64,000 nucleotides of DNA from Candidatus Parcubacteria bacterium (GCA_021731405.1 JAKFXN010000002.1:3151-67150), one strand, 5' to 3'; positions 8,146 through 35,800 are shown, counted from the first letter of the stretch. Numbers and translations are program-made. Notes: generated from the letters alone by a model not told the origin.

Positions 8146-8147
8146 GT

Positions 8148-9536: not shown

Positions 9537-9553
9537 TTCATAAGTTCATTTAT

Positions 9554-9916
9554 ATGCAAAAAAAAGTAACAGCAACGCCAAAAAAAGCAGCTGCAAAAAA
9601 GGCAGTCTCTAAAAAAAATCCCACTGAGGCAAAGAAAAAGTCTGGAAAGAAGACTCTGCTTATTGCAAATAATCAGCAATCGTTTTGGGTTAATAACGGT
9701 CAGATTCTAAACAGTTTGTTGGCTCTTGAGACAGCGCTCCAGGTGATGACTAAAGATACTTTTTCATACCATGTCGCCAAAGACAGGAATGACTTTGCTC
9801 AGTGGGTGGAATATGTCCTTGTGGATGCAGCCTGCGCCGCTGATTTGCGTAAGGCTAAGACTCCAAGTGCAGCTAAGACGGTAGTTGTAAAGCACCTAAA
9901 GACCTACCAGCTCTAA
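9554..9916 (+). CDS. hypothetical protein, Lys/Ala-rich N-terminus plus conserved C-terminal domain
   Basis: Histone-H1-like KKAAAKKAVSKK tail followed by a globular region FWVNNGQILNSLLALETALQVMTKDTFSYHV. Sits inside the glucan cluster. Confidence 0.45.
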   Translation: MQKKVTATPKKAAAKKAVSKKNPTEAKKKSGKKTLLIANNQQSFWVNNGQILNSLLALETALQVMTKDTFSYHVAKDRNDFAQWVEYVLVDAACAADLRKAKTPSAAKTVVVKHLKTYQL

Positions 9917-9919
9917 TAC

Positions 9920-16909: not shown

Positions 16910-17680
16910 ATGTTTTCACTCATTCCAATAGCTCACGCGGCTGAAGAAGCCGGCATTCATGTCGCTTTGAAGCCATATATTGTAGGCCACTTCTTTGGTG
17001 TACCCATTACTGCTACCCTCATCACTACTTGGCTCACCATGGCCTTTCTCATCACACTTTTCTTCTTTATAAGTCGAAAGCCATCTCTTATTCCTAAAAA
17101 AGCGCAAAGTATTGCTGAGATGGTTGTTGGTGGAGTATATGACTATATGAGTGATGTGCTCGAGAGTCGCAAGATGGCCCTCACATATTTCCCAATTGTG
17201 ATGACCATCTTCATTTTTGTGCTCGCTCTCAACTGGATAGGACTTCTACCAGGAGTTACCGCTATCGGTCTCAATCATGACGGACACTTCACACCACTCT
17301 TATATCCAGCTGCTACTGATCTCAATATTACTATCGCATTTGCGATTATTGCGTTTCTCACCATTGAGATAGCTGGGGTAGTGGCACTTGGTACCTTCAA
17401 GTATATTGGAAAGTTTATCAACTTCCATTCACCACTTGCGTTTATCATTGGCCTCATTGAACTTATTTCGGAAATGGCACGACTCATCTCGTTTTCATTC
17501 CGACTTTTCGGAAATATCTTTGCAGGGAAGACGCTCTTGGTGGTGATTATGTTCTTTGTCCCATACATCGTCCCTGTGCCGCTGTATGCCTTTGAACTCT
17601 TTGTTGGATTTATTCAGGCATTTATTTTTGCCATCCTGACATTGTTCTTCATCAAGATTGCCGTGGCGGAACCGCATTAG
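16910..17680 (+). CDS. atpB: F0F1 ATP synthase subunit a
   Basis: Polytopic membrane protein with the conserved C-terminal LISFSFRLFGNIFAG Arg-containing helix. Confidence 0.9.
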   Translation: MFSLIPIAHAAEEAGIHVALKPYIVGHFFGVPITATLITTWLTMAFLITLFFFISRKPSLIPKKAQSIAEMVVGGVYDYMSDVLESRKMALTYFPIVMTIFIFVLALNWIGLLPGVTAIGLNHDGHFTPLLYPAATDLNITIAFAIIAFLTIEIAGVVALGTFKYIGKFINFHSPLAFIIGLIELISEMARLISFSFRLFGNIFAGKTLLVVIMFFVPYIVPVPLYAFELFVGFIQAFIFAILTLFFIKIAVAEPH

Positions 17681-17751
17681 TGGGTAATCACGAGTCCCGT
17701 AAATAATTGGGCGTGACTCGTACTTGTCCATTAATCATTATTAAAAATTAA

Positions 17752-18024
<273 letters not shown>

Positions 18025-18209
18025 ATTCTTTTCTGGCTTACGCCATCTGCTTTGTCGCAGTACAGAAAATTTTTATCACCGTACGCTTGTACGGCTCCCA
18101 AAATTTTCTTTCTGCTCCGCGCATCTGGTGCAATCCAAAAAAGAATTACCTAGAAGTGAACAAAATCAGAAGTAACTCTCTTTATTAACCACAAACTCTA
18201 GCAAAACAT

Positions 18210-18656
18210 ATGGATGAAATCATAAATGCCTTTGGTATCGACGGACGTCTCATCATCATTCAGGTGGTGAACTTCGGTATCTTGATGGTGGCTTTGGGAT
18301 ATTTTCTCTACAAGCCTATTCTTCGTATTCTTAAAGAGCGCGAAGATAAAATCACTCAAGGACTTAAGGATGCTGAAGATGCTGCCAAGGCAAAAGAAGA
18401 GGCTGGTGTTGAAAAACAAACCATTCTCACAGGTGCACATATGGAAGCTGGGGAAGTGGCTAAGCGCGCCAAAGTTGCCGCTGATAGTCAGGCTTCAGAG
18501 ATAGTAGCTGGAGCGCAAGAAAAAGCAGCAGCGGTCTTGTCTGATGCTGAAGTAAAACGTGAACAAATCAAAGCACAAGCACTTAAAGAGAGTGAAAAAG
18601 AAATTGCTTCTCTCGCTGTTTTGGCCGCAGAGAAAGTACTTCGCGAGCAAGCATAG
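18210..18656 (+). CDS. atpF: F0F1 ATP synthase subunit b
   Basis: One N-terminal TM helix followed by a long charged coiled coil. Position in the operon. Confidence 0.8.
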   Translation: MDEIINAFGIDGRLIIIQVVNFGILMVALGYFLYKPILRILKEREDKITQGLKDAEDAAKAKEEAGVEKQTILTGAHMEAGEVAKRAKVAADSQASEIVAGAQEKAAAVLSDAEVKREQIKAQALKESEKEIASLAVLAAEKVLREQA

Positions 18657-18670
18657 CTTTTTGTCTTCTT

Positions 18671-19051
18671 ATGAAACAAGCGTATATCACAGCCTTAACC
18701 GAAGCTCTCCTCAATACAAAAGATATTGACGGAGCGCTTTCAAGTACACATGCTCTTCTCATTAAGAAAGGACACGTGCGACTTTGGCCATCAGTGCTCA
18801 AAGGAGTGGTTGCCGCGCTTGAGAAAAAGGAAGTAGATGACACCCCGCGCGTGATTGTAGCTAAAGAATCAGCTAAGAGTAGTGAAGCCCTTCAAAAGGC
18901 TTTAGCGGCACTTGCTGTTACAAGCAAAACAGAAAAAGTTGAGATTGATAGTTCGCTCATCGGCGGATTTGTTGTTCAGTACAAGGATAAGATGGTTGAT
19001 GGTAGCTACAAGCGAGCCCTCATCGATCTGTACCGAAAAGTCACCAAATAA
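18671..19051 (+). CDS. atpH: F0F1 ATP synthase subunit delta (short form, 126 aa)
   Basis: C-terminal [29 protein letters not shown] matches the OSCP/delta C-terminal domain. Operon position between b and alpha. Confidence 0.7.
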
Positions 19052-19089
19052 TTATTCATTCACCACAGTTTACTAATTCATTATTTATT

Positions 19090-20661
19090 ATGAGTACACC
19101 AATCATTGCAAGAATTAAAAAGGAAATCGAGAATCTAAACACAGCTGCACTTCCAGAAGAAATCGGAGTGGTGGTTAGTGTTGGAGACGGTATTGCTGAA
19201 ATCGAAGGACTCACTGACGCCCAGATGATGGAGATGGTGGCCTTTGAGTCAGGCGAAGGAGAGAAGCTTGCTGACTCTATCAAGAGTGAGAAGGCTCTCT
19301 TTGGTCTTATCTTGAACCTTGAAGAAGATACGGTAAAAGTAGTGGTGCTTGGTGAAAGTAATATGGTGAAAGAAGGTATGCGTGTGCGCCGCACTGGCAA
19401 GCTACTTTCTGTTCCAGTTGGAGCAGGAATTGTGGGTCGAGTGGTAAACACACTTGGTGAACCAATTGATGGAAAGGGAGCGATTGCGACCGACAAAGAT
19501 ATGCCAATCGAACGAGTGGCGTACGGTGTAATGGATCGTTCAAGTGTGAACGAACCAATCCACACTGGCATCAAGGCGATCGATTCTATGATCCCAATCG
19601 GTCGTGGTCAGCGCGAGCTTATCATTGGTGACCGAGGTACTGGAAAGACAACTATCGCTATCGACACTATCATCAACCAAAAGTACGAGCCAAAAGAAAA
19701 ACGCCCAATTTGTATTTATGTAGCCATTGGTCAAAAGCGGTCAAAGACTGCGAGTATCATGGCAAAACTAGAAGCTGCCGGAGCACTTGAATACACTACT
19801 ATTGTAGCTACTTCAGCTGCTGAAGCTTCACCACTCCTTTTCCTTGCACCATTTGCAGGAGTAGCGATTGGTGAATACTTCATGGAGCAAGGGAAAGACG
19901 TGGTGATTGTATTTGATGACCTCTCTAAGCACGCGGTGGCGTACCGACAAATGTCACTTCTACTTCGTCGCCCACCAGGACGAGAAGCGTACCCAGGAGA
20001 TATTTTCTACCTTCACTCACGACTCTTGGAGCGTTCAGCGAAGTTATCTGCTGAGCTTGGTGGAGGTTCTATTACCGCGCTACCTATTATTGAGACACAA
20101 GAAGGAGACGTTTCTGCGTACATCCCAACCAACGTAATTTCTATTACTGACGGACAGATTTTCCTTGAAACAGACTTGTTCAACAAGGGTATTCGCCCAG
20201 CCCTCAACGTAGGTATTTCGGTATCTCGTGTAGGTTCTTCAGCACAGACCAAGGCGATGAAGAAAGTGGCCGGAAAGATTCGACTTGAGCTCGCGCAGTT
20301 CCGTGAACTTGAAGCTTTCATGCAGTTCGCTTCAGACCTCGATGAAGATACTAAGAAGCGTATCGACAGTGGACGAAAGTACGTAGAACTCCTTAAGCAG
20401 CGCCAAAACGAACCAATGCCATTTTACAAGCAAGTGGTTTCTATCTACGCTGCCAACAATGGACTCTTTGATAATGCTTCTCCAACAGTAGTGTCACAGA
20501 TGGAAGTTGAATTCTTGAGTTTTATCGCTCGTGACCGAAAAGAAATCTTCGACACCATTGAAACAGGACGTGAACTTACTGACGACGTTGTGGCAAAAAT
20601 TAACACTGCCATGACAGACTTCAAAGAGGCGAACGCAAAGTTCTATACGGTAGCAAAATAA
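19090..20661 (+). CDS. atpA: F0F1 ATP synthase subunit alpha
   Basis: P-loop GDRGTGKT. 523 aa. Alpha-specific C-terminal domain. Confidence 0.95.
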
Positions 20662-20675
20662 AGGTCTAAACCTCT

Positions 20676-21584
20676 ATGGCACTTAAACAAATTAAAAACA
20701 AAATAATCTCGACCAAAAAAACCGGCAAGGTGACAAAGGCGATGGAAGCTGTTTCGGCAGTGAAAATGCGCAAGAGTCAAGAACGAGCGTTTTTGTGTCG
20801 GCCGTATGTACACGCTGCTCTTCGGATTCTTTCTCGTGTAGCACAATCTGAAGCGGTTACTACTCATCCGCTGGTGGTAAAGCGAGAGACAGGGAAGACA
20901 CTCTTGGTAGTGGTAACCAGTGACAAGGGTCTGGCTGGAAGTGTAAACAGTGCTGTATTGAAGAAGGTTGAGAAGTTCAAAGCTAGTGGTGAAGATTTTG
21001 CCATGATTGCGGTTGGTCGCAAGGCTGTTGAGTTTGCTCTACGCGAGAAGATTGAACTTCTTGGTGAATACACTAACGTGCACGATGAGGTAACTATTGA
21101 AGATGTAAAAGAAATTGTTACTAAAATACAAACTGCTTTTGCAGAAGTGGGAGTATACAAGAAAGTAGAAATCATCTACCAAAACTTCCTCTCCACCTTT
21201 GAGCAAGAGGCAACAATGCGAAAAGTGCTCCCGCTCGATACAGCAGAGGTGCATTTCATGATGCGTGGTATTCGTCCACGACACGGAAAGTTTAGTGAAG
21301 ATACGGTGCCCGCAGACAAAATGATTGATCATACTATCGAGCCAAGCGCAGAGGTAGTTTTCAATACCCTCATCCCACAGCTGATTGAGATTATTGTTTT
21401 CCATGCGTTCCTTGAGAGTAAGGCGTCAGAGCACTCAGCGCGTATGGTGGCGATGAAGAACGCAACTGACAAGAGTAAAGAAGTAGCGAAGTTCCTTACC
21501 CTCAAGTTTAACAAGGCTCGTCAAGCGGCGATTACAGCGGAAGTAGCCGAAATTACTGGTGGTATGGAAGCCATGAAAAAGTAA
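20676..21584 (+). CDS. atpG: F0F1 ATP synthase subunit gamma
   Basis: N-terminal MALKQIKNKIISTKKTGKVTKAMEAVSAVKMRK, C-terminal coiled coil. 302 aa. Confidence 0.9.
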   Translation: MALKQIKNKIISTKKTGKVTKAMEAVSAVKMRKSQERAFLCRPYVHAALRILSRVAQSEAVTTHPLVVKRETGKTLLVVVTSDKGLAGSVNSAVLKKVEKFKASGEDFAMIAVGRKAVEFALREKIELLGEYTNVHDEVTIEDVKEIVTKIQTAFAEVGVYKKVEIIYQNFLSTFEQEATMRKVLPLDTAEVHFMMRGIRPRHGKFSEDTVPADKMIDHTIEPSAEVVFNTLIPQLIEIIVFHAFLESKASEHSARMVAMKNATDKSKEVAKFLTLKFNKARQAAITAEVAEITGGMEAMKK

Positions 21585-21589
21585 ACAAT

Positions 21590-21955
21590 ATGAGAGTTTC
21601 AACCATATCAAAAATAATTCTACTCGCTTGCCAACTATTTGTAATCTGGACGCTGGTTTTTAGTGCTGTAGATTGGGCTCAACTCGTTTTAATTAGTCCT
21701 TTCGGTCTATTCGCCTTCTTTGGATCGTTTGTATACCTCATTGCCAAGATAAAAAAGTCAGGAATGAGTATGCCGACACTGTCGCCGACTCAGTTTATAA
21801 AAAATATGGAAGCGCCTGACCAGGTTGAACCTGTTAAAGAGTCTGTAAAAAATGACAGAAGCAAACTAGGTACTCTTTTTGATACTACGGTTTATGTGCT
21901 GTCGCTTTGTTTTGCGTTTAGTCCATTAATACTATTCTTTGTACTTGTTTTGTAG
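21590..21955 (+). CDS. hypothetical 3-TM membrane protein inserted between atpG and atpD
   Basis: 121 aa with hydrophobic helices. Starts 6 nt after atpG. No similarity to known ATP synthase subunits recognised. Confidence 0.5.
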   Translation: MRVSTISKIILLACQLFVIWTLVFSAVDWAQLVLISPFGLFAFFGSFVYLIAKIKKSGMSMPTLSPTQFIKNMEAPDQVEPVKESVKNDRSKLGTLFDTTVYVLSLCFAFSPLILFFVLVL

Positions 21956-21960
21956 TACTT

Positions 21961-21993
21961 AGTGATAAGTGAGTCATTGATTCATTTATCACT
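21961..21993 (+). promoter_or_regulatory. 12-bp stem hairpin inside the atp operon
   Basis: AGTGATAAGTGA-gtcattgat-TCATTTATCACT, with one G.U pair. Lies between the inserted ORF and atpD. Confidence 0.4.
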
Positions 21994-22025
21994 CGGTAGT
22001 ACCGAGTTTCAAACACAATTATTAA

Positions 22026-23408
<1,383 letters not shown>

Positions 23409-23424
23409 CAGCATCTACTTTGTT

Positions 23425-23486
23425 GCGGGGTGAAAAATATCACTCACTGTACGCTAGAGTACACCTCGCAATATTTTTCACCCCGC
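23425..23486 (+). promoter_or_regulatory. perfect 16-bp inverted repeat between atpD and atpC
   Basis: GCGGGGTGAAAAATAT ... (30-nt loop) ... ATATTTTTCACCCCGC, in the 160-nt atpD-atpC gap. Confidence 0.45.
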
Positions 23487-23568
23487 GCCGCGTATCTGAT
23501 GTCAATTTATCTCATCAAACTCGACGATTGCAAGATAGAGTAAAAACCTTAGTTCTAAGATATAAAAC

Positions 23569-23820
23569 ATGGCCGAATTAAAAACACTACAACTAAATAT
23601 CGCTCGAGTAGATGGCCCAGTCTTTGCTGGGGAAGTTATCTCTGTGACCGTGCCTGGAAGTGAAGGGGAAATGACGCTCTTAGCCGACCATACACCACTG
23701 GTGTCTGCACTTCGTGCAGGTACTATCACAGCAAGGTTGACTGATGGTACTTCACAAGAATTTGCGGTCACAGCCGGTACTCTTGAAGTAAGTCACAACA
23801 CGGTTACGATTTTACTGTAG
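23569..23820 (+). CDS. atpC: F0F1 ATP synthase subunit epsilon, N-terminal beta-sandwich domain only (83 aa)
   Basis: VPGSEGEMTLLADHTPLVSALRAGTI matches the epsilon beta-sandwich. The C-terminal helical hairpin is absent. Confidence 0.65.
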   Translation: MAELKTLQLNIARVDGPVFAGEVISVTVPGSEGEMTLLADHTPLVSALRAGTITARLTDGTSQEFAVTAGTLEVSHNTVTILL

Positions 23821-23842: not shown

Positions 23843-24724
23843 TTAAAACGTTCCGTATTTTCGGAGCGTTTTTTGTTGTTCGTCATAGAGCGCAGCTCGT
23901 ATGTTTCCAGCTATGAGTGCCTCTTGGTGGTTTTCGGGTGCAGAAATAACCAGTGTGGTAGCCCAAGCGTCGGCTGCTCTGGCAGTTGGTGCTTTCACAA
24001 AAATCCCTAAGCCGTTTAAGCTACTGTCGCCCTGTTTTGTATCAATAATGTGAGTGTAGGTCTTCCCACCATTTTCCCAGCGCCGTTTGTGGGTGCTTGA
24101 AGCAGCAAACCCTTCATAAAAGAGGGTTGTCTCCTCGATGTAAGTACCTGGGGTTGTTGGATGCTCTAAGTAGATGGTGATTGGTTTTCCGTTCTCGGCT
24201 GTAGCGTACATATCGCCGCCACCATTTATCAAAAACTCTTTAAGACCGTGCTTGTCAGTCAGTCTAGCCGCGACGAGGTCGATGAGATAGCCTTTACCAT
24301 ATCCGCCAAGGTCTACTTGACCAAGAGTGAGGAGTATTTTATCTGGGTTGAAGGTCAGTACATGTGTAGGGTCTGGAACGTCGACAGTCATTTCTTTTGG
24401 GGTAAAAGAATAGAGAGCATCGTAGCCTGTTTGCACCATTCGTTCTCCAACCAGAAAGTTGAATACACCGTGTGTTTCATAAAAGAGTCGAAGCCCATAC
24501 TGAAGGAGGTCGATAGTGTCTTGGTCAGGATTAAGGAGATGCCTCGTGTCATTAAGGATACTGATGAGTGACTCAGAACGAAAACGTGAGTACTTCACAT
24601 CAAAAGCATGAATAAAACGACGCAAATCGTCAAAGACAATTTGCGTCGTTTCTTTTGAGGTCTCATCAAAAATCTCTATCCACCAATCTGTGCCAAGACC
24701 GTTAATGGTGGGTAGAGTAGACAT
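23843..24724 (-). CDS. apbE: FAD:protein FMN transferase (flavin transferase)
   Basis: DLGGYGKGYLIDL and C-terminal conserved regions of the ApbE family. 293 aa. Confidence 0.85.
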   Translation of the reverse strand: MSTLPTINGLGTDWWIEIFDETSKETTQIVFDDLRRFIHAFDVKYSRFRSESLISILNDTRHLLNPDQDTIDLLQYGLRLFYETHGVFNFLVGERMVQTGYDALYSFTPKEMTVDVPDPTHVLTFNPDKILLTLGQVDLGGYGKGYLIDLVAARLTDKHGLKEFLINGGGDMYATAENGKPITIYLEHPTTPGTYIEETTLFYEGFAASSTHKRRWENGGKTYTHIIDTKQGDSSLNGLGIFVKAPTARAADAWATTLVISAPENHQEALIAGNIRAALYDEQQKTLRKYGTF

Positions 24725-25203
24725 TATGTTTGTTGTGCTCTGATGGCAGCAACAGCTTGATTGAATGCCTCAGAAGTTAATGATGCTCCACCTACTCGAG
24801 ATAGTGAAATGCTATCGAGTGACTTTCCGACCACTTGCGCCTCATACGCTCCGTCAAAACGTTCTTGATTTGGATTTGAGAATCCCTCACCTCCGTCGTA
24901 GATAACGTCAGCTGCAGTAACGATGCCATTTTCTACTGTGAGACTCACTTCAATTTCGTGTGAGGTTCGAGCTGGAGTGAGGTAGGTACCTGATCCTGTG
25001 TACGTGTTTGCCATGAGCGATGTTTCAACATCAACTAGGGGTTCGGTCTCTACTACGGCTTCCTCTTCGGCTTCCATGGTCTCAGTACGATTCATCTCTT
25101 CCGTTTGAACCACCGGTGTAGTTTCTTCAGCTGGTGATAGGGTAAAAAGAAGCACTCCTAAAACAACCATAATAACTCCTAAAATTGCAACAACAATTGG
25201 CAT
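24724..25203 (-). CDS. membrane-anchored FMN-binding domain protein (probable ApbE substrate)
   Basis: N-terminal TM anchor, acidic linker, and an FMN_bind-type motif SRVGGASLTS (compare the V-S-G-A-T-x-T-S flavinylation motif). Its stop overlaps the apbE start by 1 nt. Confidence 0.65.
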   Translation of the reverse strand: MPIVVAILGVIMVVLGVLLFTLSPAEETTPVVQTEEMNRTETMEAEEEAVVETEPLVDVETSLMANTYTGSGTYLTPARTSHEIEVSLTVENGIVTAADVIYDGGEGFSNPNQERFDGAYEAQVVGKSLDSISLSRVGGASLTSEAFNQAVAAIRAQQT

Positions 25204-25302
25204 ACGACAAAACTTAATTTAGATAAAAACAGCACTTATATTATACTAATTTTAAAGTAACCTTGAAAGTTTACGTTAACCCTAATTAAATGCTTAATAT
25301 TT

Positions 25303-26859
25303 ATGTACGCAGCCTTGATTAAAGTATTTCAAAAAGTAGAACAAAAGCTGGATGCAATTGCCATGTATCGTATTGTTTCTATGGCTCTGCTAGAGATAGC
25401 TTTTTTTGCTATTTTGTTTGGTTTTCTTGGACTGATTCCGTATGGGGGAGTAGAGATACTCGTCTCACTTTCCGCTGCGCTTCTAGCGGCATTTAGCACC
25501 AACTGGCTTTGTAGTAAAATCTGGCACACTGAGGTGAACAATGAGTCCGCTTTTATTACTGCGCTCATTCTATTTTTTCTTATTATTCCCGCACAGATCT
25601 CGGACTTAGAAAGCACGTGGGTGGTTATGCTCGTGACGTTTGTGGCGATTTTGTCTAAGTTTGTTTTTGCGATACGAAAGCAGCACATTGCTAATCCTGC
25701 AGCTTTGGGTGTGGTGTTAGTGGCTCTTGCTTATACGCTCTTTCCAATCCCAGGGTACTTCGAATCGACATGGTGGGTGGGGCGTGTCGAACTCTTTTTG
25801 CCGCTTCTTATTGCAGGACTAGCAGTAGTTACAAAAATTAGAAAATGGACTCCGGTGCTAGCATTTCTTTCCGTTGCGTTTGCTGTGTATCTTTTTGAGG
25901 AGTGGCGCTTTGGAGCAGATGTTGCCTCTAGAGCGTCTACCTTTTGGCTTAGTGGACCAAGTCTCTTTTTGGCGTTTTTCATGTTGACCGAGCCGTTTAC
26001 GCTACCGCCAACAAAAAAACTACAAGCTGGGTACGGAGCCCTTATTGGTTTTATTTCTCAAACCACCATCTTTCTGCCGTTTCTAAAGATGACCCCAGAA
26101 CTCGCTTTGGTACTTGGAAATATTTTATTTTATCCAGCTACACTGAAGCGAAAATTAATTTTGCCGCTAGTTAAGACTACCGAGGTCGCCAAAAATACTT
26201 TTGAGTTTGCTTTTAAAAAGCCTGAAGGACTTCGTTTTGTACCCGGACAGTACTTGGAATGGATGTTGCCACACCATAAGTCAGACAATCGAGGCATTCG
26301 TCGCTACTTTACGATTGCGTCGTCGCCAACTGATTCGCTTATACGTATTGCGGTACGCTTTGCCGATACTGTAAGTTCGTACAAAAACACTCTACGTGCT
26401 ATGCAGGGAGGAGAAATAATAATAGCTAGTCAGTTGGCTGGAGACTTCGTTTTGCCAAAAGATGAAGAGAAGGCGGTAGCTCTTGTGGCTGGAGGTATTG
26501 GCGTCACTCCTTTTTTGAGTCAGATAGGGTATATGAAAGACACAAAGTCGACTCGTAAGACAACACTCTTCTACTGCAACAATACAGTGTCTGAAATTGC
26601 TTATAAAGATTTTCTTGAGGCAGCAGCAAAAGACATCTCTCTTACTACTGTTCACGTGCTCGCCAAAGAACAAGTTGCGGGTTACGAGTCAGGTTTTTTG
26701 ACTCGGGAGATTATTGAAAAATATCTGACGGACTATAAAACAGTAGCGTGGTATCTTTCTGGGCCACCGGGAATGGTCAATGCGTATAAAAAACTTCTAG
26801 TTGAAATGGGTGTGTCAAGAAAAAATATCAAACAAGATTTTTTTCCAGGTCTCGCATAG
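25303..26859 (+). CDS. membrane oxidoreductase: polytopic N-terminal domain (RnfD/NqrB-like, FFMLTEP motif) fused to an FNR-type FAD/NAD(P)-binding reductase domain
   Basis: About 300 aa of TM helices, then RYFTIASSP (RxYS FAD motif), GGIGVTPFLS (NAD motif) and C-terminal LSGPPGMVNA. 518 aa. Confidence 0.8.
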   Translation: MYAALIKVFQKVEQKLDAIAMYRIVSMALLEIAFFAILFGFLGLIPYGGVEILVSLSAALLAAFSTNWLCSKIWHTEVNNESAFITALILFFLIIPAQISDLESTWVVMLVTFVAILSKFVFAIRKQHIANPAALGVVLVALAYTLFPIPGYFESTWWVGRVELFLPLLIAGLAVVTKIRKWTPVLAFLSVAFAVYLFEEWRFGADVASRASTFWLSGPSLFLAFFMLTEPFTLPPTKKLQAGYGALIGFISQTTIFLPFLKMTPELALVLGNILFYPATLKRKLILPLVKTTEVAKNTFEFAFKKPEGLRFVPGQYLEWMLPHHKSDNRGIRRYFTIASSPTDSLIRIAVRFADTVSSYKNTLRAMQGGEIIIASQLAGDFVLPKDEEKAVALVAGGIGVTPFLSQIGYMKDTKSTRKTTLFYCNNTVSEIAYKDFLEAAAKDISLTTVHVLAKEQVAGYESGFLTREIIEKYLTDYKTVAWYLSGPPGMVNAYKKLLVEMGVSRKNIKQDFFPGLA

Positions 26860-26861
26860 TA

Positions 26862-27524
26862 TTACCAAATGATTGGAGAGTGTCTGTGCTTTTCTAGATA
26901 CGCATTTGTCTGACTAAAATGTTTGCAGCCAAAAAAGCCACTATGAGCTGAAAAGGGAGAGGGGTGGGGTGCGGTAAGTACAAGATGCTTTTTGCTATCA
27001 ATAAGATTTGCTTTGGCTTGTGCATACTTTCCCCATAAAAGGAAAACAACGTTTTCTTTTTCATTGGATATCTTTTTGATTATGACGTCAGTAAAAGTTT
27101 CCCAACCTTGTCCTTGGTGCGAAGCCGGAAGTCCACTCTCTACAGTGAGAGTAGCATTGAGCAGGAGTACTCCTTGCTCGGCCCAACGCTCTAAATTTCC
27201 AGAAGCTGGAGAAGGTGTACCAACATCAGAGGCAATTTCCTTGAAAATATTTTTAAGTGATGGAGGAACAGTGATTCCTTCATGCACAGAAAAGGAAAGC
27301 CCATGTGCTTGCCCTGCGCCATGATATGGATCTTGCCCGAGGACCACTACTCGTACTTTATCAAATGGACACAATCTGAAAGCACTAAATAAATCTGTTG
27401 GTTTTGGAAATACCGTTTTGGTTAGATACGCGCTTCGAACAAATGAGGTCAAGGAAACAAAGTATTCTTTCTCAAACTCGTCTTTGAGTTGCAGAGCCCA
27501 GTTCGGTTCAATGTCTACTTTCAT
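26862..27524 (-). CDS. ung: uracil-DNA glycosylase, family 1
   Basis: VVLGQDPYHGAGQAHGLSFSV active-site motif. Confidence 0.9.
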   Translation of the reverse strand: MKVDIEPNWALQLKDEFEKEYFVSLTSFVRSAYLTKTVFPKPTDLFSAFRLCPFDKVRVVVLGQDPYHGAGQAHGLSFSVHEGITVPPSLKNIFKEIASDVGTPSPASGNLERWAEQGVLLLNATLTVESGLPASHQGQGWETFTDVIIKKISNEKENVVFLLWGKYAQAKANLIDSKKHLVLTAPHPSPFSAHSGFFGCKHFSQTNAYLEKHRHSPIIW

Positions 27525-27595
27525 ACAATAATATATGTAGCTTACCTTGTTTGCAGTACTTGTGCGAACGGTGTTTTGAGGCTTAAAAGAGCGGT

Positions 27596-27838
27596 ATGGT
27601 ACACTATTTCTCTATGCACGAAACACACAAAAGAAGTATTCTTAAAGGTATTACTTGGCGAATTATCGCATCAGGAACTACCATGACGGTGGTCTATGTT
27701 GTGACCGGAGATTTGGCTTTAGTTGCGAGTGTGGGAGTGGTTGATGTGATAGCTAAGGTTTTTTTCTACTACATTCACGAACGGAGTTGGGGGAGAGTTA
27801 CTTGGGGACTTCTTGGTACTGAACCCCAGATCAAATAA
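27596..27838 (+). CDS. small membrane protein (DUF2061-like)
   Basis: 80 aa, two TM helices, ERSWGRV motif. Confidence 0.4.
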   Translation: MVHYFSMHETHKRSILKGITWRIIASGTTMTVVYVVTGDLALVASVGVVDVIAKVFFYYIHERSWGRVTWGLLGTEPQIK

Positions 27839-27841
27839 AAT

Positions 27842-28702
27842 TTATTTTTGGCAGGTAGGGCAATAGTGTGTACCGCGTCCTGCCACTCTAATCTTCTCTA
27901 TCTCAGTACCACAAACTCCGCAAGGAGTTTTTTGTTTACCAAATACTTGTAGGTAGTCTGTGTAGTTACCATTTTCTCCACCGGTATCTTTAAAATGCTG
28001 GAAGGTGGTGCCGCCAACAGCAATAGATTTTTTAAGAATAGCAGAGCTGGCGATGGCAATTGCACGTGCTTCATTTTTAGTGAGTGTATTTGCATTTCTT
28101 GTCGGTCGAACTTTAGCCATGAACAGAGCTTCATCGACATAGATATTCCCCAGACCAGCCACAAATTTTTGATCTAAGAGGGCAGCTTTTACCGTGGTGT
28201 TTCGTTTTCGTATAAGAGAAACAAAACTATCAATATCAAAATCTTCACTAATGGGTTCTTGTCCATACTTTGCTCTTGCTACAGCAACTTCCTTCGCGGT
28301 GGCGGTTTTGATATACCCAAACAAACGCATGTCATTAAAATATAGTACCGATGAATCAGAGAAGTGAAAAACCGCTCTCGTATGTTTGTGTGGTAGCTTT
28401 AGGTCTGTCTCACTCATGGAGTGTCCGCCTCCAACAATGCCAGAAGCATCTGCATAAAAAAATTGACCAGTCATCTTCAAGTGAACAAGAAGAAACAAAT
28501 CTTTTTCGTGGGTGAAGGAGAAAATTAAAAGCTTACCAATCCTGTCTATGTGACTAATTGATTTTTCGGTCATTTTTTTCGCAAACAGCTTTTCGTGTAC
28601 TACTGTCTTGGGGTGGAGGACAGTAACTTTTTTGATTGATTTACCTCGTACTTTATGGAGTAGCTGGAGGCGAACCGTCTCTACTTCGGGGAGTTCTGGC
28701 AT
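27842..28702 (-). CDS. mutM: formamidopyrimidine-DNA glycosylase
   Basis: N-terminal MPELPEVE catalytic Pro/Glu. H2TH region. C-terminal zinc finger CGVCGTEI...HYCPTCQ. Confidence 0.9.
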   Translation of the reverse strand: MPELPEVETVRLQLLHKVRGKSIKKVTVLHPKTVVHEKLFAKKMTEKSISHIDRIGKLLIFSFTHEKDLFLLVHLKMTGQFFYADASGIVGGGHSMSETDLKLPHKHTRAVFHFSDSSVLYFNDMRLFGYIKTATAKEVAVARAKYGQEPISEDFDIDSFVSLIRKRNTTVKAALLDQKFVAGLGNIYVDEALFMAKVRPTRNANTLTKNEARAIAIASSAILKKSIAVGGTTFQHFKDTGGENGNYTDYLQVFGKQKTPCGVCGTEIEKIRVAGRGTHYCPTCQK

Positions 28703-28890: not shown

Positions 28891-31800
28891 ATGCTCAAAG
28901 TGTTTTCTAAGCTCAGCCTAGCTTTATTTTTACTCGTACCAAGCCTTGGGTTAGCTCAGGTCACCAACCTACCTTCTGTGCCACAACCAAGTAGTGGCCA
29001 GATAGTGGGACTCAATCTGCAAAACCCAACAGGGAGTAGTCTCGTCTCACAACCTGTGCGTTTTGGACAAGCTTTTTTAGCTGGAGCACTTTCTGGTACT
29101 TCAGGCATTAATGCAACGGTAAACGGAGTCGCTGCTCCCGCGCAAATTGACGTAAAGACAAAACACGCTGATGGCTCAGTGAAGTTTGGTGTTGTCACCG
29201 TGATGGCACCTGCTGTCTCTGCTAACACCGTAAACCCAACTCTTCTCTCAGCTACAACAAAAAGTAGTTCAGTCATTTCACTTTCGACTATGCCCAACTA
29301 CTCGCTTGTGGTAGACATGACTATGTCAGATGGAAAGAAATACAGCTTCAATGCCGCCACACTTTTGGCTGAAGCGATCTCTGCTGGGAAGGTTTCATAC
29401 TGGAGACAAGGGTCAGTAGTAACAGAGGGAAGAATTGAAGTACCAGTAGTATCTTCAATGCGTCTCGTGTTTGATATTTCTAAGTATCAAGATGGTACAT
29501 ACTCTACCGACGTTCATTTCAACAATGATGCGGCGATGACTTCTTCAGGTAATACGCTTACGTACTCAGCGACGATTACTCAAAATGGGAAAGTGGCCTA
29601 CCAAGTAAGCAACCTTAAACATCATCAATATCAAACCTGGCACACAGTAATCTACAGTGGAGCAACCCCAGCTATCAATCCACAACTCGATATTCCGTAT
29701 CTAGTAAAAACAAAGACAATTATTAATTTTGACACTACCCATGGGGTACTCACTGATGAGATTTCAAGTCTCACGTACAAACCCCTAGATGCAACTGGCA
29801 TTACTGAGTATATGCCTATGGCTGGAGCAAGAGGTGATATTGGGCCGATTACCAATGTAAATGCTGATTGGCTCCTCACGCAAGATGCTAAGGCTGCAAA
29901 ATCTGCTCTAGCACAAGCTGATGGTGCGGGTAGTGTGCCATGGCACTATTATGACCCGTCGAGTAAAGACTATATTTCACTCGATAAGTACCCTGACCTC
30001 TGGACGGATGAACGAGGAGATCCAACCCTAACTCAGTTTTCGAAAAGTACCGATTGGCAAGTAGACTCAGCTCATCAACCAAACCTTTCTTTCATCCCAT
30101 ATCTATTAACTGGTAGTAGATACCACCTTGATCAGATAAACGCACAGGCAACTCACGCTATCTTTATTGTGTGGCCAGCCCCGAGAGATGGTGGTACTGG
30201 ACTCGTTATTAATGATAACGACCAAATTCGTAGTCAGGCTTGGAATTTTAGACAAGTAGCTGAAGCGGCTTGGGCAAATCCAGACGGAACAGCAACCAAA
30301 GCCTACTGGGAAAGACTTGTAGACAACAACCTACAGAGTTTACTCAACAGAATACCGCAAATGACAAAAGCTCAAGGTGAACCTCATGGCTATATAGCTG
30401 GATACGCACCATGGCAAGATGACTATTTTCTTTCTTCTATGGCAGCTGTGGCTGGGCGGGGAAACGCCAAAGCGAAAAAAATTATTGAATGGATGTCTAA
30501 CTTTATGGTGGGAAGATTTGTGCACCTACCAAATCCCGAAGTCGGTATCACTGCTGAATTAACAAACTGGAAATCTGACGACTCTGGTTACATCACAACC
30601 TGGAAAGGTATTTCCGATGCTAACCCATCTTCTAATTCTGACGGCGGTACGTATGGACTACTTGGCTTGGGTTCAATTGCCAACACGTACAATATCACCG
30701 GTTCTTCAACAGTGTTACAAGTCTATAACAGGATAAAAGCTTTAAATTTCCCGACTACCAGTATTGATGATAGACGAACAGAAACACAGTTCAGTATTGT
30801 CCCAGTGGGTACTGGCGCAGGTGTTATTACACCCTCTCCAACTCCAACACCTACTCCGACTCCGATTCCAGTAGTAGCTCCAACCGCTACTCTGACCGCT
30901 ATCCCAACTTCAATCACCAGTGGTGGCAGCACTGTGGTCTCTTGGTCTTCAACTAATGCCACTACCTGTACTGGCACCAATTTCACCACTGGTGGAGCAA
31001 CGAGCGGTGCAGTCTCAGTTGCACTGGTGAACAACGCAACTTTCACGCTGTCATGTACTGGTGCTGGTGGTACGGTTACTAAGTCAGTAACTGTTAGTGT
31101 GGCCGCTACACCTTCAACTAAGTTCACACTTACAGACAGGGTAGCTGCCTCCGACACTGTTAATGTCCGTGCAACCGCTAACACTGCAGGAACTCTTAGA
31201 GGCACACAAGTGGTAGGTGCGCTAGGTAGTGTTGCTGGAGGACCAACTTCAGCCAATGGATATAGTTGGTGGAATATTAATTTCGACAACGGTGCTGACG
31301 GTTGGGCAGTGGAGGACTACCTTGTGAAATCGACAGTACCTGTTCCGACTCCAGCCCCTACACCAACTCCAACTCCAACACCCGTACCTGTTCCAACTCC
31401 AACGCCAGTAGTAGCCCCAACCCTCACCCTCACTGCCAGCAAAGCAGCAGTTGTGTCTCGAGAACGGGTAACACTCAATTGGTCAGCTCAAAATGCTACC
31501 AGCTGTGCTTCAGGCAATTTCCTTGTTTCAAGTACCACAGGTTCAAAGGTGGTCCGTCCAACAAAAAGTACTACATACACCATGACCTGTACTGGAAAGA
31601 GTGGTTCTGTGACACAGAGCGTGGGGGTAACAGTTGGTACTACCCCAACACCAACTCCGACACCTACTCCAACTCCAGTACCAACCCCTACCCCAACACC
31701 AACGCCGGTGCCTGCCCCTGTTCCAACTCCAACCCCGTCAGCTGGTAGCATGCCAACCGACTACTTCCTCTACCTACCATTTGATGGTTCGATTGAAGAG

Positions 31801-32661
31801 AAGGGTAGTGCAAAGAAAACAACCGCCGGAGGAAACGTTACTTACCAAACAGGCAAGTACGGACAAGCCGCCTACTTTGACGGTAGTTCACATGTGAGTG
31901 TGGAGATGGGAACTCTCAAGCCTACGTATACTGCTTCGTTCTGGATGAAGCCCAATCGACCAGCTTCCAATCGAGAATTTTTCCCAGCGATCTATGGTGG
32001 TAATGAAACTGGCTGCGGTTCTGCTCCAAGTGTTTCATATGATGGCTTGAAGCAGATTGTGGTACATACAACAGGTTGTGACGGTAGCGCAGAGTCACTC
32101 ATTGGAGGTTTTGGTCCAACCACATGGCATCATGTGACAGTGGTCGTTACTGACTCTTCTCGCCGTGTGTATATAAATGGCAGTCTTGAAGATGAAAGAG
32201 AAAACCTAGCAAACTCAGAAACTTCAGCCTCAGCTTGTTTCTTTATTGGCGGGTACCAGACTGAACCATGTAAACCAACGGACGGAATTTACTTCAAAGG
32301 CCTCATCGACGACGTTCGTGTATACAAACGCGCCCTCTCTGCTAGTGAAATCCAAACCCTCGTAGCTAGTACTCCAACCAAGTCGACGGTTGCTACAATT
32401 CCTGCGACATCAAATGGTTTTGTCCGAGCAGTGAAGGTTAGTACCATTCCATTTGTGCAAAACCTCGCCGTTGCCAGTACTGGAGAAGCGGTCACACAGC
32501 TCCAAAAAGTGTTGACTGCACTTGGCTATTTCAAAGAAGAAGCCACGGGCTATTTTGGACCACTCACCGCAAGCGCTGTCTCAGCCTTCCAGCGTGACAA
32601 TGGTCTTGAGCCAGTTGGAATTGTTGGTTCTAAGACTAGAGCGGTGCTTAATTTACGGTAA
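28891..32661 (+). CDS. giant secreted multidomain surface protein, paralog 1 (1256 aa)
   Basis: Signal peptide MLKVFSKLSLALFLLVPSLGLAQV. A roughly 650-aa N-terminal domain of unknown function. PT-repeat linkers. An Ig-like module (TLTAIPTSITSGGSTVVSWSSTNATTCTG). An SH3b-like module (VNVRATANTAGTL...GYSWWNI...GWAVEDYL). A LamG/concanavalin-like lectin domain (YFLYLPFDGSIEEKGS...). A C-terminal PG_binding_1-like domain (GEAVTQLQKVLTALGYF...FQRDNGLEPVGIVG). A terminator follows. Confidence 0.85.
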   Translation: MLKVFSKLSLALFLLVPSLGLAQVTNLPSVPQPSSGQIVGLNLQNPTGSSLVSQPVRFGQAFLAGALSGTSGINATVNGVAAPAQIDVKTKHADGSVKFGVVTVMAPAVSANTVNPTLLSATTKSSSVISLSTMPNYSLVVDMTMSDGKKYSFNAATLLAEAISAGKVSYWRQGSVVTEGRIEVPVVSSMRLVFDISKYQDGTYSTDVHFNNDAAMTSSGNTLTYSATITQNGKVAYQVSNLKHHQYQTWHTVIYSGATPAINPQLDIPYLVKTKTIINFDTTHGVLTDEISSLTYKPLDATGITEYMPMAGARGDIGPITNVNADWLLTQDAKAAKSALAQADGAGSVPWHYYDPSSKDYISLDKYPDLWTDERGDPTLTQFSKSTDWQVDSAHQPNLSFIPYLLTGSRYHLDQINAQATHAIFIVWPAPRDGGTGLVINDNDQIRSQAWNFRQVAEAAWANPDGTATKAYWERLVDNNLQSLLNRIPQMTKAQGEPHGYIAGYAPWQDDYFLSSMAAVAGRGNAKAKKIIEWMSNFMVGRFVHLPNPEVGITAELTNWKSDDSGYITTWKGISDANPSSNSDGGTYGLLGLGSIANTYNITGSSTVLQVYNRIKALNFPTTSIDDRRTETQFSIVPVGTGAGVITPSPTPTPTPTPIPVVAPTATLTAIPTSITSGGSTVVSWSSTNATTCTGTNFTTGGATSGAVSVALVNNATFTLSCTGAGGTVTKSVTVSVAATPSTKFTLTDRVAASDTVNVRATANTAGTLRGTQVVGALGSVAGGPTSANGYSWWNINFDNGADGWAVEDYLVKSTVPVPTPAPTPTPTPTPVPVPTPTPVVAPTLTLTASKAAVVSRERVTLNWSAQNATSCASGNFLVSSTTGSKVVRPTKSTTYTMTCTGKSGSVTQSVGVTVGTTPTPTPTPTPTPVPTPTPTPTPVPAPVPTPTPSAGSMPTDYFLYLPFDGSIEEKGSAKKTTAGGNVTYQTGKYGQAAYFDGSSHVSVEMGTLKPTYTASFWMKPNRPASNREFFPAIYGGNETGCGSAPSVSYDGLKQIVVHTTGCDGSAESLIGGFGPTTWHHVTVVVTDSSRRVYINGSLEDERENLANSETSASACFFIGGYQTEPCKPTDGIYFKGLIDDVRVYKRALSASEIQTLVASTPTKSTVATIPATSNGFVRAVKVSTIPFVQNLAVASTGEAVTQLQKVLTALGYFKEEATGYFGPLTASAVSAFQRDNGLEPVGIVGSKTRAVLNLR

Positions 32662-32815: not shown

Positions 32816-35800
32816 ATGTTCAAATTATTTTCTAAGCTCAGTCTAGCCCTCTTTTTACTCGTACCAAGTCTTGGGCTAGCTCAGGTCACGTATCTACCAA
32901 CCATTCCTCAGGCGACCGGCAGTCAAATTGTTGGACTTAATCTGCAAAACCCGACGGGGAGCAGTCTCGTCTCGCAACCTGTGCGTTTTGGACAAACCTT
33001 TTTATCAGGCGCACTTTCTGGTACTTCTGGTATCAGTGCAACAGTGAATGGTGCAGGTGCCCCAGCGCAAATAGATGTTAAGACAAAACACAGTGATGGT
33101 TCAGTGAAGTTTGGTGTCGTGACAGTTATGGCACCAGCACTTTCTGCTAACAGTGCCAACCCAACTCTTCTCTCACCTGCAACAAAAAGTAGTTCTGTCA
33201 TTTCGCTCTCGACAATGCCTAACTACTCCCTCGTTGTTGACATGACTATGTCTGATGGAAAGAAGTATAGCTTCAACGCTGGCACACTTTTAGCTGAGGC
33301 ACTCTCCGCTGGCAAAGTTTCATACTGGAGACAGGGACCGGTTGTGACCGAAGGAAGAATTGAAGTACCAGTAGCATCTTCAATGCGACTGGTGTTTGAT
33401 ATTTCTAAGTATCAAGACGGTTCATACTCAACTGATGTGCACTTCAACAACGATGCAGCGATGACAGCTTCAGGAGATACTCTCACGTATTCAGCTACTA
33501 TTACTCAAAACGGAAAGGTAGCGTATCAGGTGAGCAACCTAGCACATCATCAGTATCAAACCTGGCACACGGTTGTCTATAGCGCAGTAACTCCAGCCAT
33601 CAATCCGCAACTTGATATTCCGTATTTATTGAAAACGAAAGCTGTGCTTAACTTTAATACCACTCACGGGGTCGCCACAAATGCAATATCAGCCGTTACC
33701 TATACTCCGCTCGGTGAAGCGGGAATTGAAACCTACATGCCAATGACAGGTGGTCGAGGTGATATTGGTCCAATCACAAACGTAAATGCTGATTGGCTCC
33801 TCACGCAAGATGTTAAGGCTGCAAAATCAGCTCTCGCACAAGCAGATGCTGCCGGCAGTATCCCTTGGCATTACTACGACCCAACAACAAGTGATTATAT
33901 TTCTCTAGATAAACACCCAAAGCTTTGGGCTGATAGTCGAGGGAATCCAAAACTTACTCAGTTTACAAAAGATTCTGTTTGGAGTATTGATACATCTCAC
34001 CAACCAAACCTTTCGTTCATCCCATACATCTTAACTGGAAACCGTTACCATCTAGATCAAATTAATGCTCAAGCAACCTTCTCAATATTTAATTCTTGGC
34101 CGTATTACCGAAAGGATGGACTCGGATTGATGCTTAATGGGGGCGACCAGACTAGAGGGCAGGCCTGGAGTTTCCGTCAAGTTATTGATGCTGTTTGGGC
34201 AAACCCTGATGACACCACAACAAAGTCTTACTGGAGAAAAGTTGAAGATAACAATCTCCAGTATCTTTTGGATGCACGTTCTGCACGTGAGACTGAGCAG
34301 GGTGAGGCGTATGGATATGCTGCAGGAGCAAACTACGAAACATACATAGCTCCATGGCAGCAAGAGTTTTACTTTAGTGCAGTTGCACTTTCGGCACAGC
34401 GAGGAAATGCCAAGGCAAAAGAAGTAGCAGCGTGGATGTCTAACTTTATTGTCGATCGCTTCAATAAATTGCGTGAACCTCTCTCATCAGTTAACTACCG
34501 ATTCAACCATCGTAATGCAGCCGGTGCGATTGTAAAAACATGGTCTGGACTTTCTGATCAAAATCCTGCTACTCCGGGTAAGGGTTATTATTCACCACTC
34601 GGCCTTGCTTCACTTGCCAATGCATACAATGTCTCAGGATTGCAAAAAGATCTCGACACCTATAATAAGATTAAAGCACTGAACCCTCCTTCAACCAGTA
34701 TTGACGATATGCGTGTGGAGACACAATTCAGTATCGTCCCAGTGGGTTCTGGTGCCGGGGTTATCACACCTGCTCCAACTCCAACACCAACACCAACACC
34801 AACACCAACACCAACACCAACACCTACTCCGACTCCAGTAGTAGCTCCAACCGCTACTCTGACCGCTATTCCAACTTCAATCACCAGTGGTGGCAGTACC
34901 GTAGTGACGTGGTCTTCAACGAACGCTACTACTTGTACTGGGACAAACTTCAGTACTGGTGGAGCTGCTAGTGGAGCAGTGTCTGTAGCGCTTGTAAATA
35001 ATGCCACCTTCACGCTGTCATGTACTGGTGCTGGTGGTTCTGTGACTAAGACTGCAGCAACTACTGTTTCAACGGTTACCTCAACAAAGTTTAAGTCTGG
35101 TGATCGAGTTTCAACAACTGAAAATCTTAACGTACGAACAACTGCTAACACAACAGGAACTTTACTCGGCACACAGTCATTAAGTGCGCTTGGGTTTGTT
35201 GCTGGCGGACCAACAAATGCGAGCGGTTTTAACTGGTGGAACATTAACTTCGATAGTGGTGTTGATGGCTGGGCAGTGGAAGACTATCTTATGAAGTCAA
35301 CGATAGCTGTTCCAACACCTACGCCAACTCCAACACCTACGCCAACTCCAACCCCAGGAACAAAAAGTGTCTGTGTTGATACAATTTGTACATACACAAC
35401 TATCGCCAGTGCATTTGCAGCCGCAAAGAATGGTTCGACTATCACTATTTCAGGTGAATGGACTGCTGGCGGGGCTTTGACAGCAAGTAACGTAACCATC
35501 AAAGGTGATGGTACTGCACACCTCAAGGGTGGTGCTGTACAAGGAAAAGCGATTATTGTGACAAGTGGACAGAGCACCACAATTGAAAATATCGAGTGTT
35601 CAAACGCAACAGTACCAGACGAAAACGGCGCTTGTGTGCGACATCAAGGAAGTGGTCTGACTCTCCGTAATGTAAACTTCCACGATAATCAAAACGGTCT
35701 TCTCGCTAGCCCAGACAGCGGCTCAATCCTAATTGAAGGAAGTACCTTTGAGCGAAATGGATTTAATGGTGGTGGAGGATATGCACACGGAATTTATGTT

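Follow-up and report, generated by a model that had tools for sequence, protein, structure and literature searches.

A stretch of 64,000 nucleotides from a Candidatus Parcubacteria bacterium (GCA_021731405.1 JAKFXN010000002.1:3151-67150; hereafter the window) carries at positions 23843-26859 three neighbouring genes, which encode the flavin transferase ApbE, a membrane-anchored protein of 159 aa of the flavin mononucleotide (FMN)-binding type, and a 518-aa protein in which an RnfD-like membrane domain is fused to an FNR-type reductase domain. On balance, we regard these genes as a complete three-gene NQR/RNF-like module for flavin-based transmembrane electron transfer in a bacterium of the Candidate Phyla Radiation (CPR; Paceibacteria-type). 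In the mechanism that we consider probable, NAD(P)H would reduce the flavin adenine dinucleotide (FAD) of the cytosolic FNR domain, and electrons would cross the membrane via the ten-helix RnfD-like domain, probably through one or more non-covalent flavins, the covalent-FMN loop being deleted. At the outer face, a covalent FMN on Ser141 of the 159-aa NqrC/RnfG-type protein, installed by ApbE, would take up the electrons, while one transmembrane (TM) helix and an acidic disordered tether of ~40 residues would leave the flavin domain free to dock on the RnfD-like domain and afterwards to meet an external acceptor. An earlier note on this DNA had proposed the same three identities, which proved right, and an NAD(P)H-to-outside electron route, which coincides with a published hypothesis. 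All three open reading frames (ORFs) that it had placed were found at its coordinates, together with every motif that it had quoted.

With high confidence we assign the locus to the NQR/RNF-like system of Meheust et al. 2021 (eLife, PMC8238504); it is a further instance of a catalogued, bioinformatically defined kind and not a new one. That study described the system as a flavinylation-associated cluster, i.e. one with an ApbE or FMN-binding gene within five genes, containing a protein that begins with an NqrB/RnfD domain (PF03116) and ends with a PF00175 domain, and found it mainly in Actinobacteria and CPR. The 518-aa protein combines PF03116 and PF00175 in one chain, and apbE and the FMN_bind gene are its immediate divergent neighbours. 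Huang et al. 2024 (PMC10979944) built an AlphaFold-multimer model of the Ktedonobacter complex; they pointed out that the Thr which is flavinylated in NqrB/RnfD lacks conservation in the RnfD-like subunit, and proposed that the non-covalent site thus left vacant is sampled by the flavin of the NqrC/RnfG-like partner. The same Thr is missing here, the segment around RsxD T187 being gone. An experimental test of the system is reported in neither PMC8238504 nor PMC10979944, and full-text literature searches returned no other paper linking RnfD or ApbE to CPR/Patescibacteria. The statement in the earlier note that the module had not been characterised for this lineage thus holds for its biochemistry, which those papers leave untested, but not for the system itself, which Meheust et al. 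2021 had already reported in CPR and Huang et al. 2024 had modelled. The points added here are the deletion of the FMN-threonine loop, the lack of other Rnf/Nqr, quinone or cytochrome genes in the window, the ApbE without a signal peptide, and the adjacency to the ATP synthase.

The gene for the fusion (25303-26859, plus strand) is divergent from the apbE/FMN_bind pair. Residues 1-283 (25303-26151) form an RnfD/NqrB-like polytopic membrane domain with ~10 TM helices and both termini inside, as judged from Pfam, the alignment to RsxD, loop charges and AlphaFold. The N-terminal half, for which the earlier note had suggested a hidden Markov model (HMM) search with NQR2_RnfD_RnfE, matched this family (PF03116) at 55.6 bits against a cut-off of 27.7. 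Against E. coli RsxD, a profile of the 283-residue domain gave two aligned blocks (E 6e-8 and 5e-10), the first pairing fusion residues 27-145 with RsxD 18-136, conserved NPA helix included, and the second pairing residues 175-252 with RsxD 235-311. In the second block the signature helix FFMLTEP (residues 225-231; 25975-25995) lies against FFILTDP of RsxD, which bears out the resemblance to the FMxTDP element of RnfD/NqrB suggested in the earlier note; M227, T229, E230 and P231 were invariant among 111 fusion homologs. Between the blocks, the 98 residues of RsxD 137-234, which hold the flavinylated Thr187 in DGISQATPLD, are replaced by 29 residues (146-174; 25738-25824) comprising a shortened outside loop and the start of a helix, and no [ST]GA[ST] motif occurs in this substitute for the RsxD FMN loop. 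The spacing from NPA to FMxT(E/D)P is 91 residues here and 84 in three measurable related loci, as compared with 159 in RsxD. The deletion agrees with the view of Huang et al. 2024 that the flavin of the partner reaches into the vacated site. DVASRAS (residues 206-212), a look-alike of D-x-x-S-x-A-S, was considered as a second flavinylation site and rejected, as it lies in a variable loop without conservation. Searches against the Protein Data Bank (PDB) were less informative for this domain than the RsxD alignment and Pfam: phmmer with the single N-terminal-domain sequence gave no match, the domain profile gave no more than weak matches to RnfD, and in a Foldseek search with the whole fusion FNR-type structures filled the top 50, with none to NqrB/RnfD.

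The remaining residues 284-518 (26152-26859, stop codon included) constitute an FNR-type FAD/NAD(P)H reductase domain, predicted to be cytosolic, on the evidence of Pfam, PDB profile and Foldseek. NAD_binding_1 (PF00175) was matched at 52.6 bits against a cut-off of 22, along with a weak match to FAD_binding_6, and the motifs RYFTIASSP (residues 334-342) and GGIGVTPFLS (397-406) are present; in the 111 homologs RRYFTIAS and AGGIG(I/V)TPF were invariant. Profile matches in the PDB included NqrF, flavohemoglobin and others (E 1e-14 to 1e-17, best 5e-17), and Foldseek returned FNR-type structures with E 1e-15 to 1e-18 and TM-scores of 0.7-0.86, namely the FAD domain of NqrF and flavohemoglobin reductases as well as SpNOX and DUOX, the latter two via the FNR half. 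Matches to the NCBIfam models for RnfD, RsxD, NqrB, NqrF and flavohemoprotein reductase were all far under the equivalog cut-offs, and we take these families to be relatives, not orthologues, of the fusion. Across the 111 homologs, the mean number of Lys plus Arg per loop alternates 3.6/0.2/1.6/0.3/1.7/0.3/2.9, and by this positive-inside alternation the N-terminus and the FNR domain lie inside and the shortened loop lies outside. The fusion was modelled by AlphaFold with high confidence (pLDDT 93, pTM 0.89).

Instead of being a general fermentative electron sink, the same machinery might have the specific role of reducing ferric iron or other metals for assimilation, or of scavenging surface oxidants (O2 or reactive oxygen species, ROS), but we consider this unlikely. 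Its TM-plus-FNR layout parallels that of NOX and ferric-reductase enzymes, with SpNOX and DUOX among the Foldseek matches, and VIT1 iron transporters occur in 6 of 127 NQR/RNF-like clusters (Meheust 2021, PMC8238504). However, neither the window nor any of ten loci of the window type (defined below) has a linked iron transporter, siderophore or ROS gene, and the membrane domain is RnfD-like: PF01794, the heme-binding TM domain of ferric reductases, was not matched in the fusion, whose TM half is PF03116.

The putative outward carrier is encoded on the minus strand (24724-25203, stop included) as a 159-aa membrane-anchored protein of the NqrC/RnfG type. It consists of an N-terminal TM anchor (residues 2-21; 25141-25200), which is a helix in the AlphaFold model, an acidic, disordered tether containing Thr and Pro (residues 22-61; 25021-25140) with 12 Glu in residues 22-62 and a pLDDT below 50 for residues 26-61, and the FMN-binding domain itself (residues 62-159; 24727-25020). 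The anchor is widely conserved, with an N-terminal hydrophobic segment in 117 of 120 FMN_bind homologs (median Kyte-Doolittle hydropathy 3.17), while the tether varies in length and is of low complexity; this arrangement suggests a flavin carrier on a leash. The predicted site of the FMN phosphoester is Ser141 (codon 24781-24783) in LSRVGGASLTS, i.e. within VGGASLTS at residues 137-144, based on conservation and on profile-profile alignment with hhalign. The motif is a variant, GGAS, with G and not S/T in its first position, and G139-A140-S141 were invariant in 45 homologs. For FMN_bind (PF04205), likewise a check put forward in the earlier note, the window protein alone scored 18.5 bits, short of the gathering cut-off of 22, and the assignment was confirmed at the family level: FMN_bind was the sole recurring family (24 of 45 members at E <= 0.01, best 4.7e-6), and hhalign to nine Pfam-positive FMN_bind partners of related clusters gave a probability of 94% and E 1.3e-7, with GGAS placed on SGA(S/T). 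Fold comparison also identified the NqrC/RnfG-like fold in the 159-aa protein. The family profile found no meaningful match among PDB sequences, and its comparison with RsxG was not significant. Almost all homologs are labelled as hypothetical protein, a precomputed PF04205 match existing for just 6 of 120, and a family-specific HMM would recover this partner family; one of these homologs is 100% identical to the window protein. Covalent attachment of FMN to Ser141 is what this motif conservation points to.

The enzyme predicted to attach the FMN is encoded by apbE (23843-24724, minus strand), a FAD:protein FMN transferase of 293 aa; enzymes of this family move FMN from FAD onto a Ser/Thr of their target in a Mg2+-dependent reaction. 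The two genes on the minus strand overlap by one nucleotide, as the earlier note had said: the sequence, read directly, is ...ACA TAA TG TCT, and in the TAATG at 24722-24726 the stop codon of the FMN_bind gene and the ATG of apbE share the A at 24724. ApbE matches PF02424 with E 2.6e-34 over profile positions 1-255 of 266 and is 25% identical to E. coli Ftp over 261 residues (E 1e-21). Its domain starts at residue 10, which corresponds to residue 42 of E. coli Ftp/ApbE, where the first 41 residues are a lipoprotein signal that served as positive control. In the window ApbE only nine residues precede the conserved LGT of the domain start, and no signal peptide, lipobox or TM segment was found. 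The same applies to its relatives: among 120 ApbE homologs not one begins with a hydrophobic segment, the conserved (L/M)GT is preceded by 11 residues or fewer in 114 of 116, and the shorter ApbEs of a second subtype, Ktedonospora included, have 7-8 residues before the domain start. An upstream in-frame extension of apbE is impossible, as the ORF begins within the preceding gene in another frame. The possibility that FMN_bind and ApbE are joined by a programmed frameshift, leaving ApbE tethered outside, was also considered and rejected, given that TAATG has no slippery sequence and that elsewhere the FMN_bind and apbE genes lie 2-12 nt apart or are placed after the fusion gene. The earlier note had spoken of extracytosolic flavinylation, a description that the ApbE without any export signal complicates.

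Several points weigh against the mechanism proposed above. All evidence is computational, and any cofactor, activity or acceptor proposed for a member of the system is putative. Electrons would have to cross the membrane without the iron centre of NqrD/E or RnfA/E, via flavins of the RnfD/NqrB type. The window-type anchor (MPIVVAILG...SPAEE) has no K/R on either side, so that its orientation is deduced from homology and from the acidic flank; K/R precede the anchor helix in subtype-B and Saccharibacteria homologs. Most seriously, an export signal is absent from ApbE in all ~140 members examined, while characterised extracytosolic systems use an exported ApbE and a cytosolically expressed E. 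coli ApbE failed to complement (PMC12052999); because ApbE lacks such a signal, the step in which it flavinylates an outside domain lacks an explanation. This conflict is not addressed in the accessible portions of Meheust et al. 2021 or Huang et al. 2024. The 2021 pipeline asked for just one signal peptide per cluster (PMC8238504), so a signal-less ApbE would go unflagged. Three options present themselves: flavinylation in the cytosol of a motif close to the C-terminus before export, an FMN domain that is itself cytosolic, or some other export route. As to the first, a seven-residue motif near a terminus is enough for flavinylation in the cytosol (PMC12052999, a 2025 ApbE review).

The second option leads to a different picture, in which the FMN_bind domain, once flavinylated, remains cytosolic (N-out, C-in), shuttling electrons from the FNR domain to the cytosolic face of the RnfD-like domain and on to a membrane-soluble or host-derived acceptor, with the flavin domain not acting as an extracellular outlet. 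ApbE lacks an export signal family-wide, known signal-less ApbEs serve cytosolic targets such as the fumarate reductase of K. pneumoniae (PMC12052999), and the window-type anchor MPIVVA... has no positive charge ahead of its helix, which in principle makes translocation of the N-tail possible. Against this, partners in other subtypes start with K/R followed by a hydrophobic stretch, predicting N-in and C-out; the flank after the window-type anchor is strongly acidic without K/R for ~17 residues, unlike a typical cytosolic flank; solved complexes show NqrC and RnfG in the periplasm; and the multimer model of Huang 2024 puts the partner at the equivalent of the NqrB FMN pocket, which here faces outward by the positive-inside pattern. 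A flavin domain kept in the cytosol is thus quite improbable, and we retain the reading of an outward-facing carrier.

Beyond the window, a scan of genomes turned up full-length fusions in Patescibacteria (Saccharibacteria, Nomurabacteria, Adlerbacteria, Amesbacteria, Peribacteria), Ktedonospora, Actinobacteria and some metagenome-assembled genomes labelled Proteobacteria, and named homologs of the window proteins came from Paceibacterota, Pacebacteria and Parcubacteria. Within 3 kb of the fusion gene, family HMMs detected ApbE in 20 of 26 loci and FMN_bind in 21 of 26, several of the gaps lying at contig ends. Two types can be told apart. The window type, found in the window, Saccharibacteria and Actinobacteria, has the flavinylation motif (V/I)(G/S/A)G(A/S)(S/T) and an ApbE of ~290 aa, while the second type, found in other CPR groups and other phyla, has the motif D-x-I-SGA(S/T) and an ApbE of ~247 aa whose gene overlaps the fusion gene. 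An exhaustive profile search with the RnfD-like domain retrieved 462 clusters (50% identity) at E <= 1e-30; among the best 150 of these, 122 were 470-570 aa long and 118 contained GGxGxxP. An RnfD-like domain of this type therefore appears to be essentially always fused to FNR, in a family of sizeable extent.

In relatives of the window type the module sits in a conserved block, [ATP synthase operon ->][<- apbE <- FMN_bind][fusion ->][<- UDG][DUF2061][<- Fpg], which in the window spans 16910-23820 with 23843-28702 and recurs in the related loci L081, L084 and L087-L091. The end of the ATPase operon lies at most ~1.2 kb from apbE in 8 of 10 window-type loci, five times with an F-type (window, L081, L088, L089, L091) and three times with a V/A-type ATPase (L084, L087, L090). 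Between the convergent atpC and apbE of the window, a terminator-like hairpin (23845-23872, plus strand; an 11-bp stem followed by a T-run, a match to the consensus only) suggests that the ATP synthase operon and the flavin module may be separate transcripts. On the other side, the 99-bp divergent intergenic region (25204-25302) might hold promoters for both transcription units of the module; it contains a promoter-like site on the plus strand (25218-25247) and a TATAAT on the minus strand, in a scan where the number of sites was not above that of shuffled controls.

This neighbourhood invites the idea of an energy-conserving pump, in which the fusion and its flavin partner would form a minimal Na+- or H+-translocating NAD(P)H oxidoreductase, or run in reverse on the ion-motive force, together with the adjacent ATP synthase. 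NqrB is implicated in the Na+ translocation of Na+-NQR, and the close spacing holds for F-type and V/A-type operons alike. However, none of 20 distant loci had an ATPase in its fetched flanks (up to 8 kb), and we rejected the adjacency as a general property of the system. UDG and Fpg are kept in the same block, so that it has the look of clade-level synteny, the two operons are convergent with the hairpin between them, and the module has neither NqrD/E nor RnfA/E and no known acceptor to supply a driving force. The adjacency is most simply explained as clade-level synteny in which the ATPase type was replaced in situ; a functional link to the ATP synthase is possible but unsupported, and we judge pumping by this module to be very unlikely.

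The earlier note had also reported that the window holds no further Rnf/Nqr subunit, quinone or cytochrome gene, and as far as tested this is the case. E. coli RsxA/B/C/E/G gave nothing at E <= 10 against 307 window ORFs, and a Pfam scan of 43 window proteins plus the annotated genes of L081, which left out ~10 short ORFs, found housekeeping genes and the F-type ATP synthase only; L081 is a syntenic, 90%-identical locus whose Pfam-annotated ATP-synthase, UDG, DUF2061 and Fpg genes were included. No second ApbE or FMN_bind gene exists within the window. Although the inspection covered 64 kb of the genome, the thought that the cluster is a remnant or fragment of a full Rnf/Nqr operon with its other subunits elsewhere, which the earlier note had named as a possible refutation, is scarcely credible given that the locus stands as a self-contained module within the window, without Rsx relatives, that several phyla have this compact cluster of three genes with no other Rnf/Nqr gene beside it, and that loss of the covalent-FMN loop together with FNR fusion marks a distinct, stable architecture across the 462 clusters.

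Compared with known systems, the NQR/RNF-like system (PMC8238504, PMC10979944) has the identical architecture of a PF03116-PF00175 fusion beside an NqrC/RnfG-like protein and ApbE, lacks a conserved flavinylated Thr as well, and has likewise been proposed to pass electrons one way from NAD(P)H to the outside. Nothing essential differs in the window clade, which is distinguished by GGAS instead of SGA(S/T), an FMN_bind domain below the Pfam cut-off, a long acidic tether, and a divergent, not co-linear, gene order. With Rnf (RnfABCDGE) and Na+-NQR (NqrABCDEF) the module shares an RnfD/NqrB-like domain with NPA and FFMxT(D/E)P helices, an RnfG/NqrC-type FMN domain with a covalent-flavin motif, an NqrF-like FAD/NAD(H) domain and, presumably, ApbE-dependent maturation. 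It differs in that the searched window has no RnfA/E or NqrD/E (the membrane iron centre), RnfB, RnfC or NqrA, the FNR part has no 2Fe-2S domain and is fused to the RnfD-like domain, and the RnfD/NqrB loop with the covalent FMN-Thr is deleted; moreover, electron flow would be one-way and not semicircular, and ion pumping is unproven. The likeness to NOX and ferric reductases (e.g. SpNOX, PDB 8qt6) is one of architecture only, a polytopic membrane domain joined to a cytosolic FAD/NAD(P)H dehydrogenase domain of the FNR type, from which electrons pass outward. The fusion is not a member of that family: its membrane domain is RnfD-like and presumably flavin-based, in contrast to a six-helix bis-heme domain, and it would need a separate flavinylated partner protein. 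Extracellular electron transfer in Listeria (Ndh2, EetA/B, PplA, FmnB) resembles the proposed scheme in that an ApbE-type enzyme flavinylates a tethered or surface FMN protein, the final outward carrier, in a monoderm cell. Unlike Listeria with its quinone pool, lipoprotein ApbE (FmnB) and FAD export, the window system would have no quinone step, its donor domain is fused to the membrane conduit, and no export signal is present on its ApbE. Klebsiella pneumoniae has a cytosolic ApbE that acts on the soluble fumarate reductase (PMC12052999); it too is without a signal peptide, but its substrate is cytosolic whereas the one here is predicted to be extracytosolic.

Among the other genes of the window are those for BacA, HisRS, aldolase, glycogen enzymes, the F-type ATP synthase, UDG, Fpg, MreB/C, Def/Fmt and large Laminin_G/PG-binding surface proteins. 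A 121-aa hydrophobic ORF without Pfam match (21590-21955, plus strand) lies between atpG and atpD in the F-type ATP synthase operon, and L089 has small unannotated ORFs at similar positions. Downstream of the module, two giant secreted paralogues of 1256 and 1600 aa stand in tandem (28891-32661 and 32816-37618, both plus strand), with near-identical signal peptides (M[LF]K[VL]FSKLSLALFLLVPSLGLAQVT), PTPTPTP linkers and C-terminal Laminin_G_3 and PG_binding_1 domains; the longer one also has a beta-helix, and the GC skew goes negative across both. They are probably cell-surface or host-interaction proteins. An EPSP_synthase/MurA-type enolpyruvyl transferase (45839-47338, minus strand) carries an N-terminal HTH_3 (Cro/C1-type) fusion, which is an unusual combination. 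A 920-aa protein (48523-51285, plus strand) with weak matches to HerA/DUF87 and to coupling proteins of type IV secretion systems (TraG/VirD4-like) is followed by a 1173-aa protein without Pfam match (51294-54815, plus strand), and the pair may be part of a type IV secretion or conjugation-like machinery of CPR. Two MreB paralogues (E 4e-128 and 4e-132) and MreC (47418-48434, 60715-61797 and 61745-62728, all plus strand) occur in this small-genome organism. Further, a glycogen/starch-type cluster (6910-11896, plus strand; GT4/GT5-like synthase, GH57 and a GH15 glucoamylase-like enzyme) adjoins a class I fructose-bisphosphate aldolase gene (5329-6357). In three distant loci, from Nomurabacteria (L003, 5043-6665), Adlerbacteria (L020, 5044-6728) and Nocardioides (L025, 4077-6611), what seem to be ABC-transporter genes directly precede the FMN_bind gene; going by the N-terminal sequence alone, the ORF of L003 is ATPase-like and those of L020 and L025 are FtsX/MacB-like permeases. 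Nothing comparable is present in the window, and these neighbours may be a clue to the substrate, or to an export of flavin, in those lineages.

The CPR versions of the system escape standard detection, with an FMN_bind domain under the Pfam cut-off and an ApbE without a signal peptide, and the N-terminal anchor of the 159-aa protein, which looks uncleaved, may or may not be called by a signal-peptide predictor. CPR members have probably been under-counted through the signal-peptide filter and sub-threshold FMN_bind, an effect not discussed in the accessible portions of PMC8238504 or PMC10979944, and part of the under-representation of flavinylation reported for CPR may be an artefact of detection. 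A bolder proposition, which we put forward only tentatively and which is doubtful as a whole, is that FMN is attached in the cytosol family-wide before the C-terminal part is exported, and that the module, as a heme-free and quinone-free NAD(P)H:outside oxidoreductase, is perhaps the sole membrane redox enzyme in many Paceibacteria, is far commoner in CPR than the survey of 2021 implied, and stays next to the ATP synthase, possibly because the two act together. If true, attachment in the cytosol would allow a covalent flavoprotein to reach the outside of the cell with no export of FAD. In any case, the pairing of a predicted cytosolic ApbE with a predicted outside substrate challenges the simple picture of extracytosolic flavinylation, in a way that lends itself to testing. 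In the usual view, CPR/Patescibacteria live by fermentation and have no respiratory chains, hemes or quinones, and a self-contained, flavin-only conduit from NAD(P)H to the surface would let them dump reducing equivalents or reduce iron, oxygen or compounds of the host surface.

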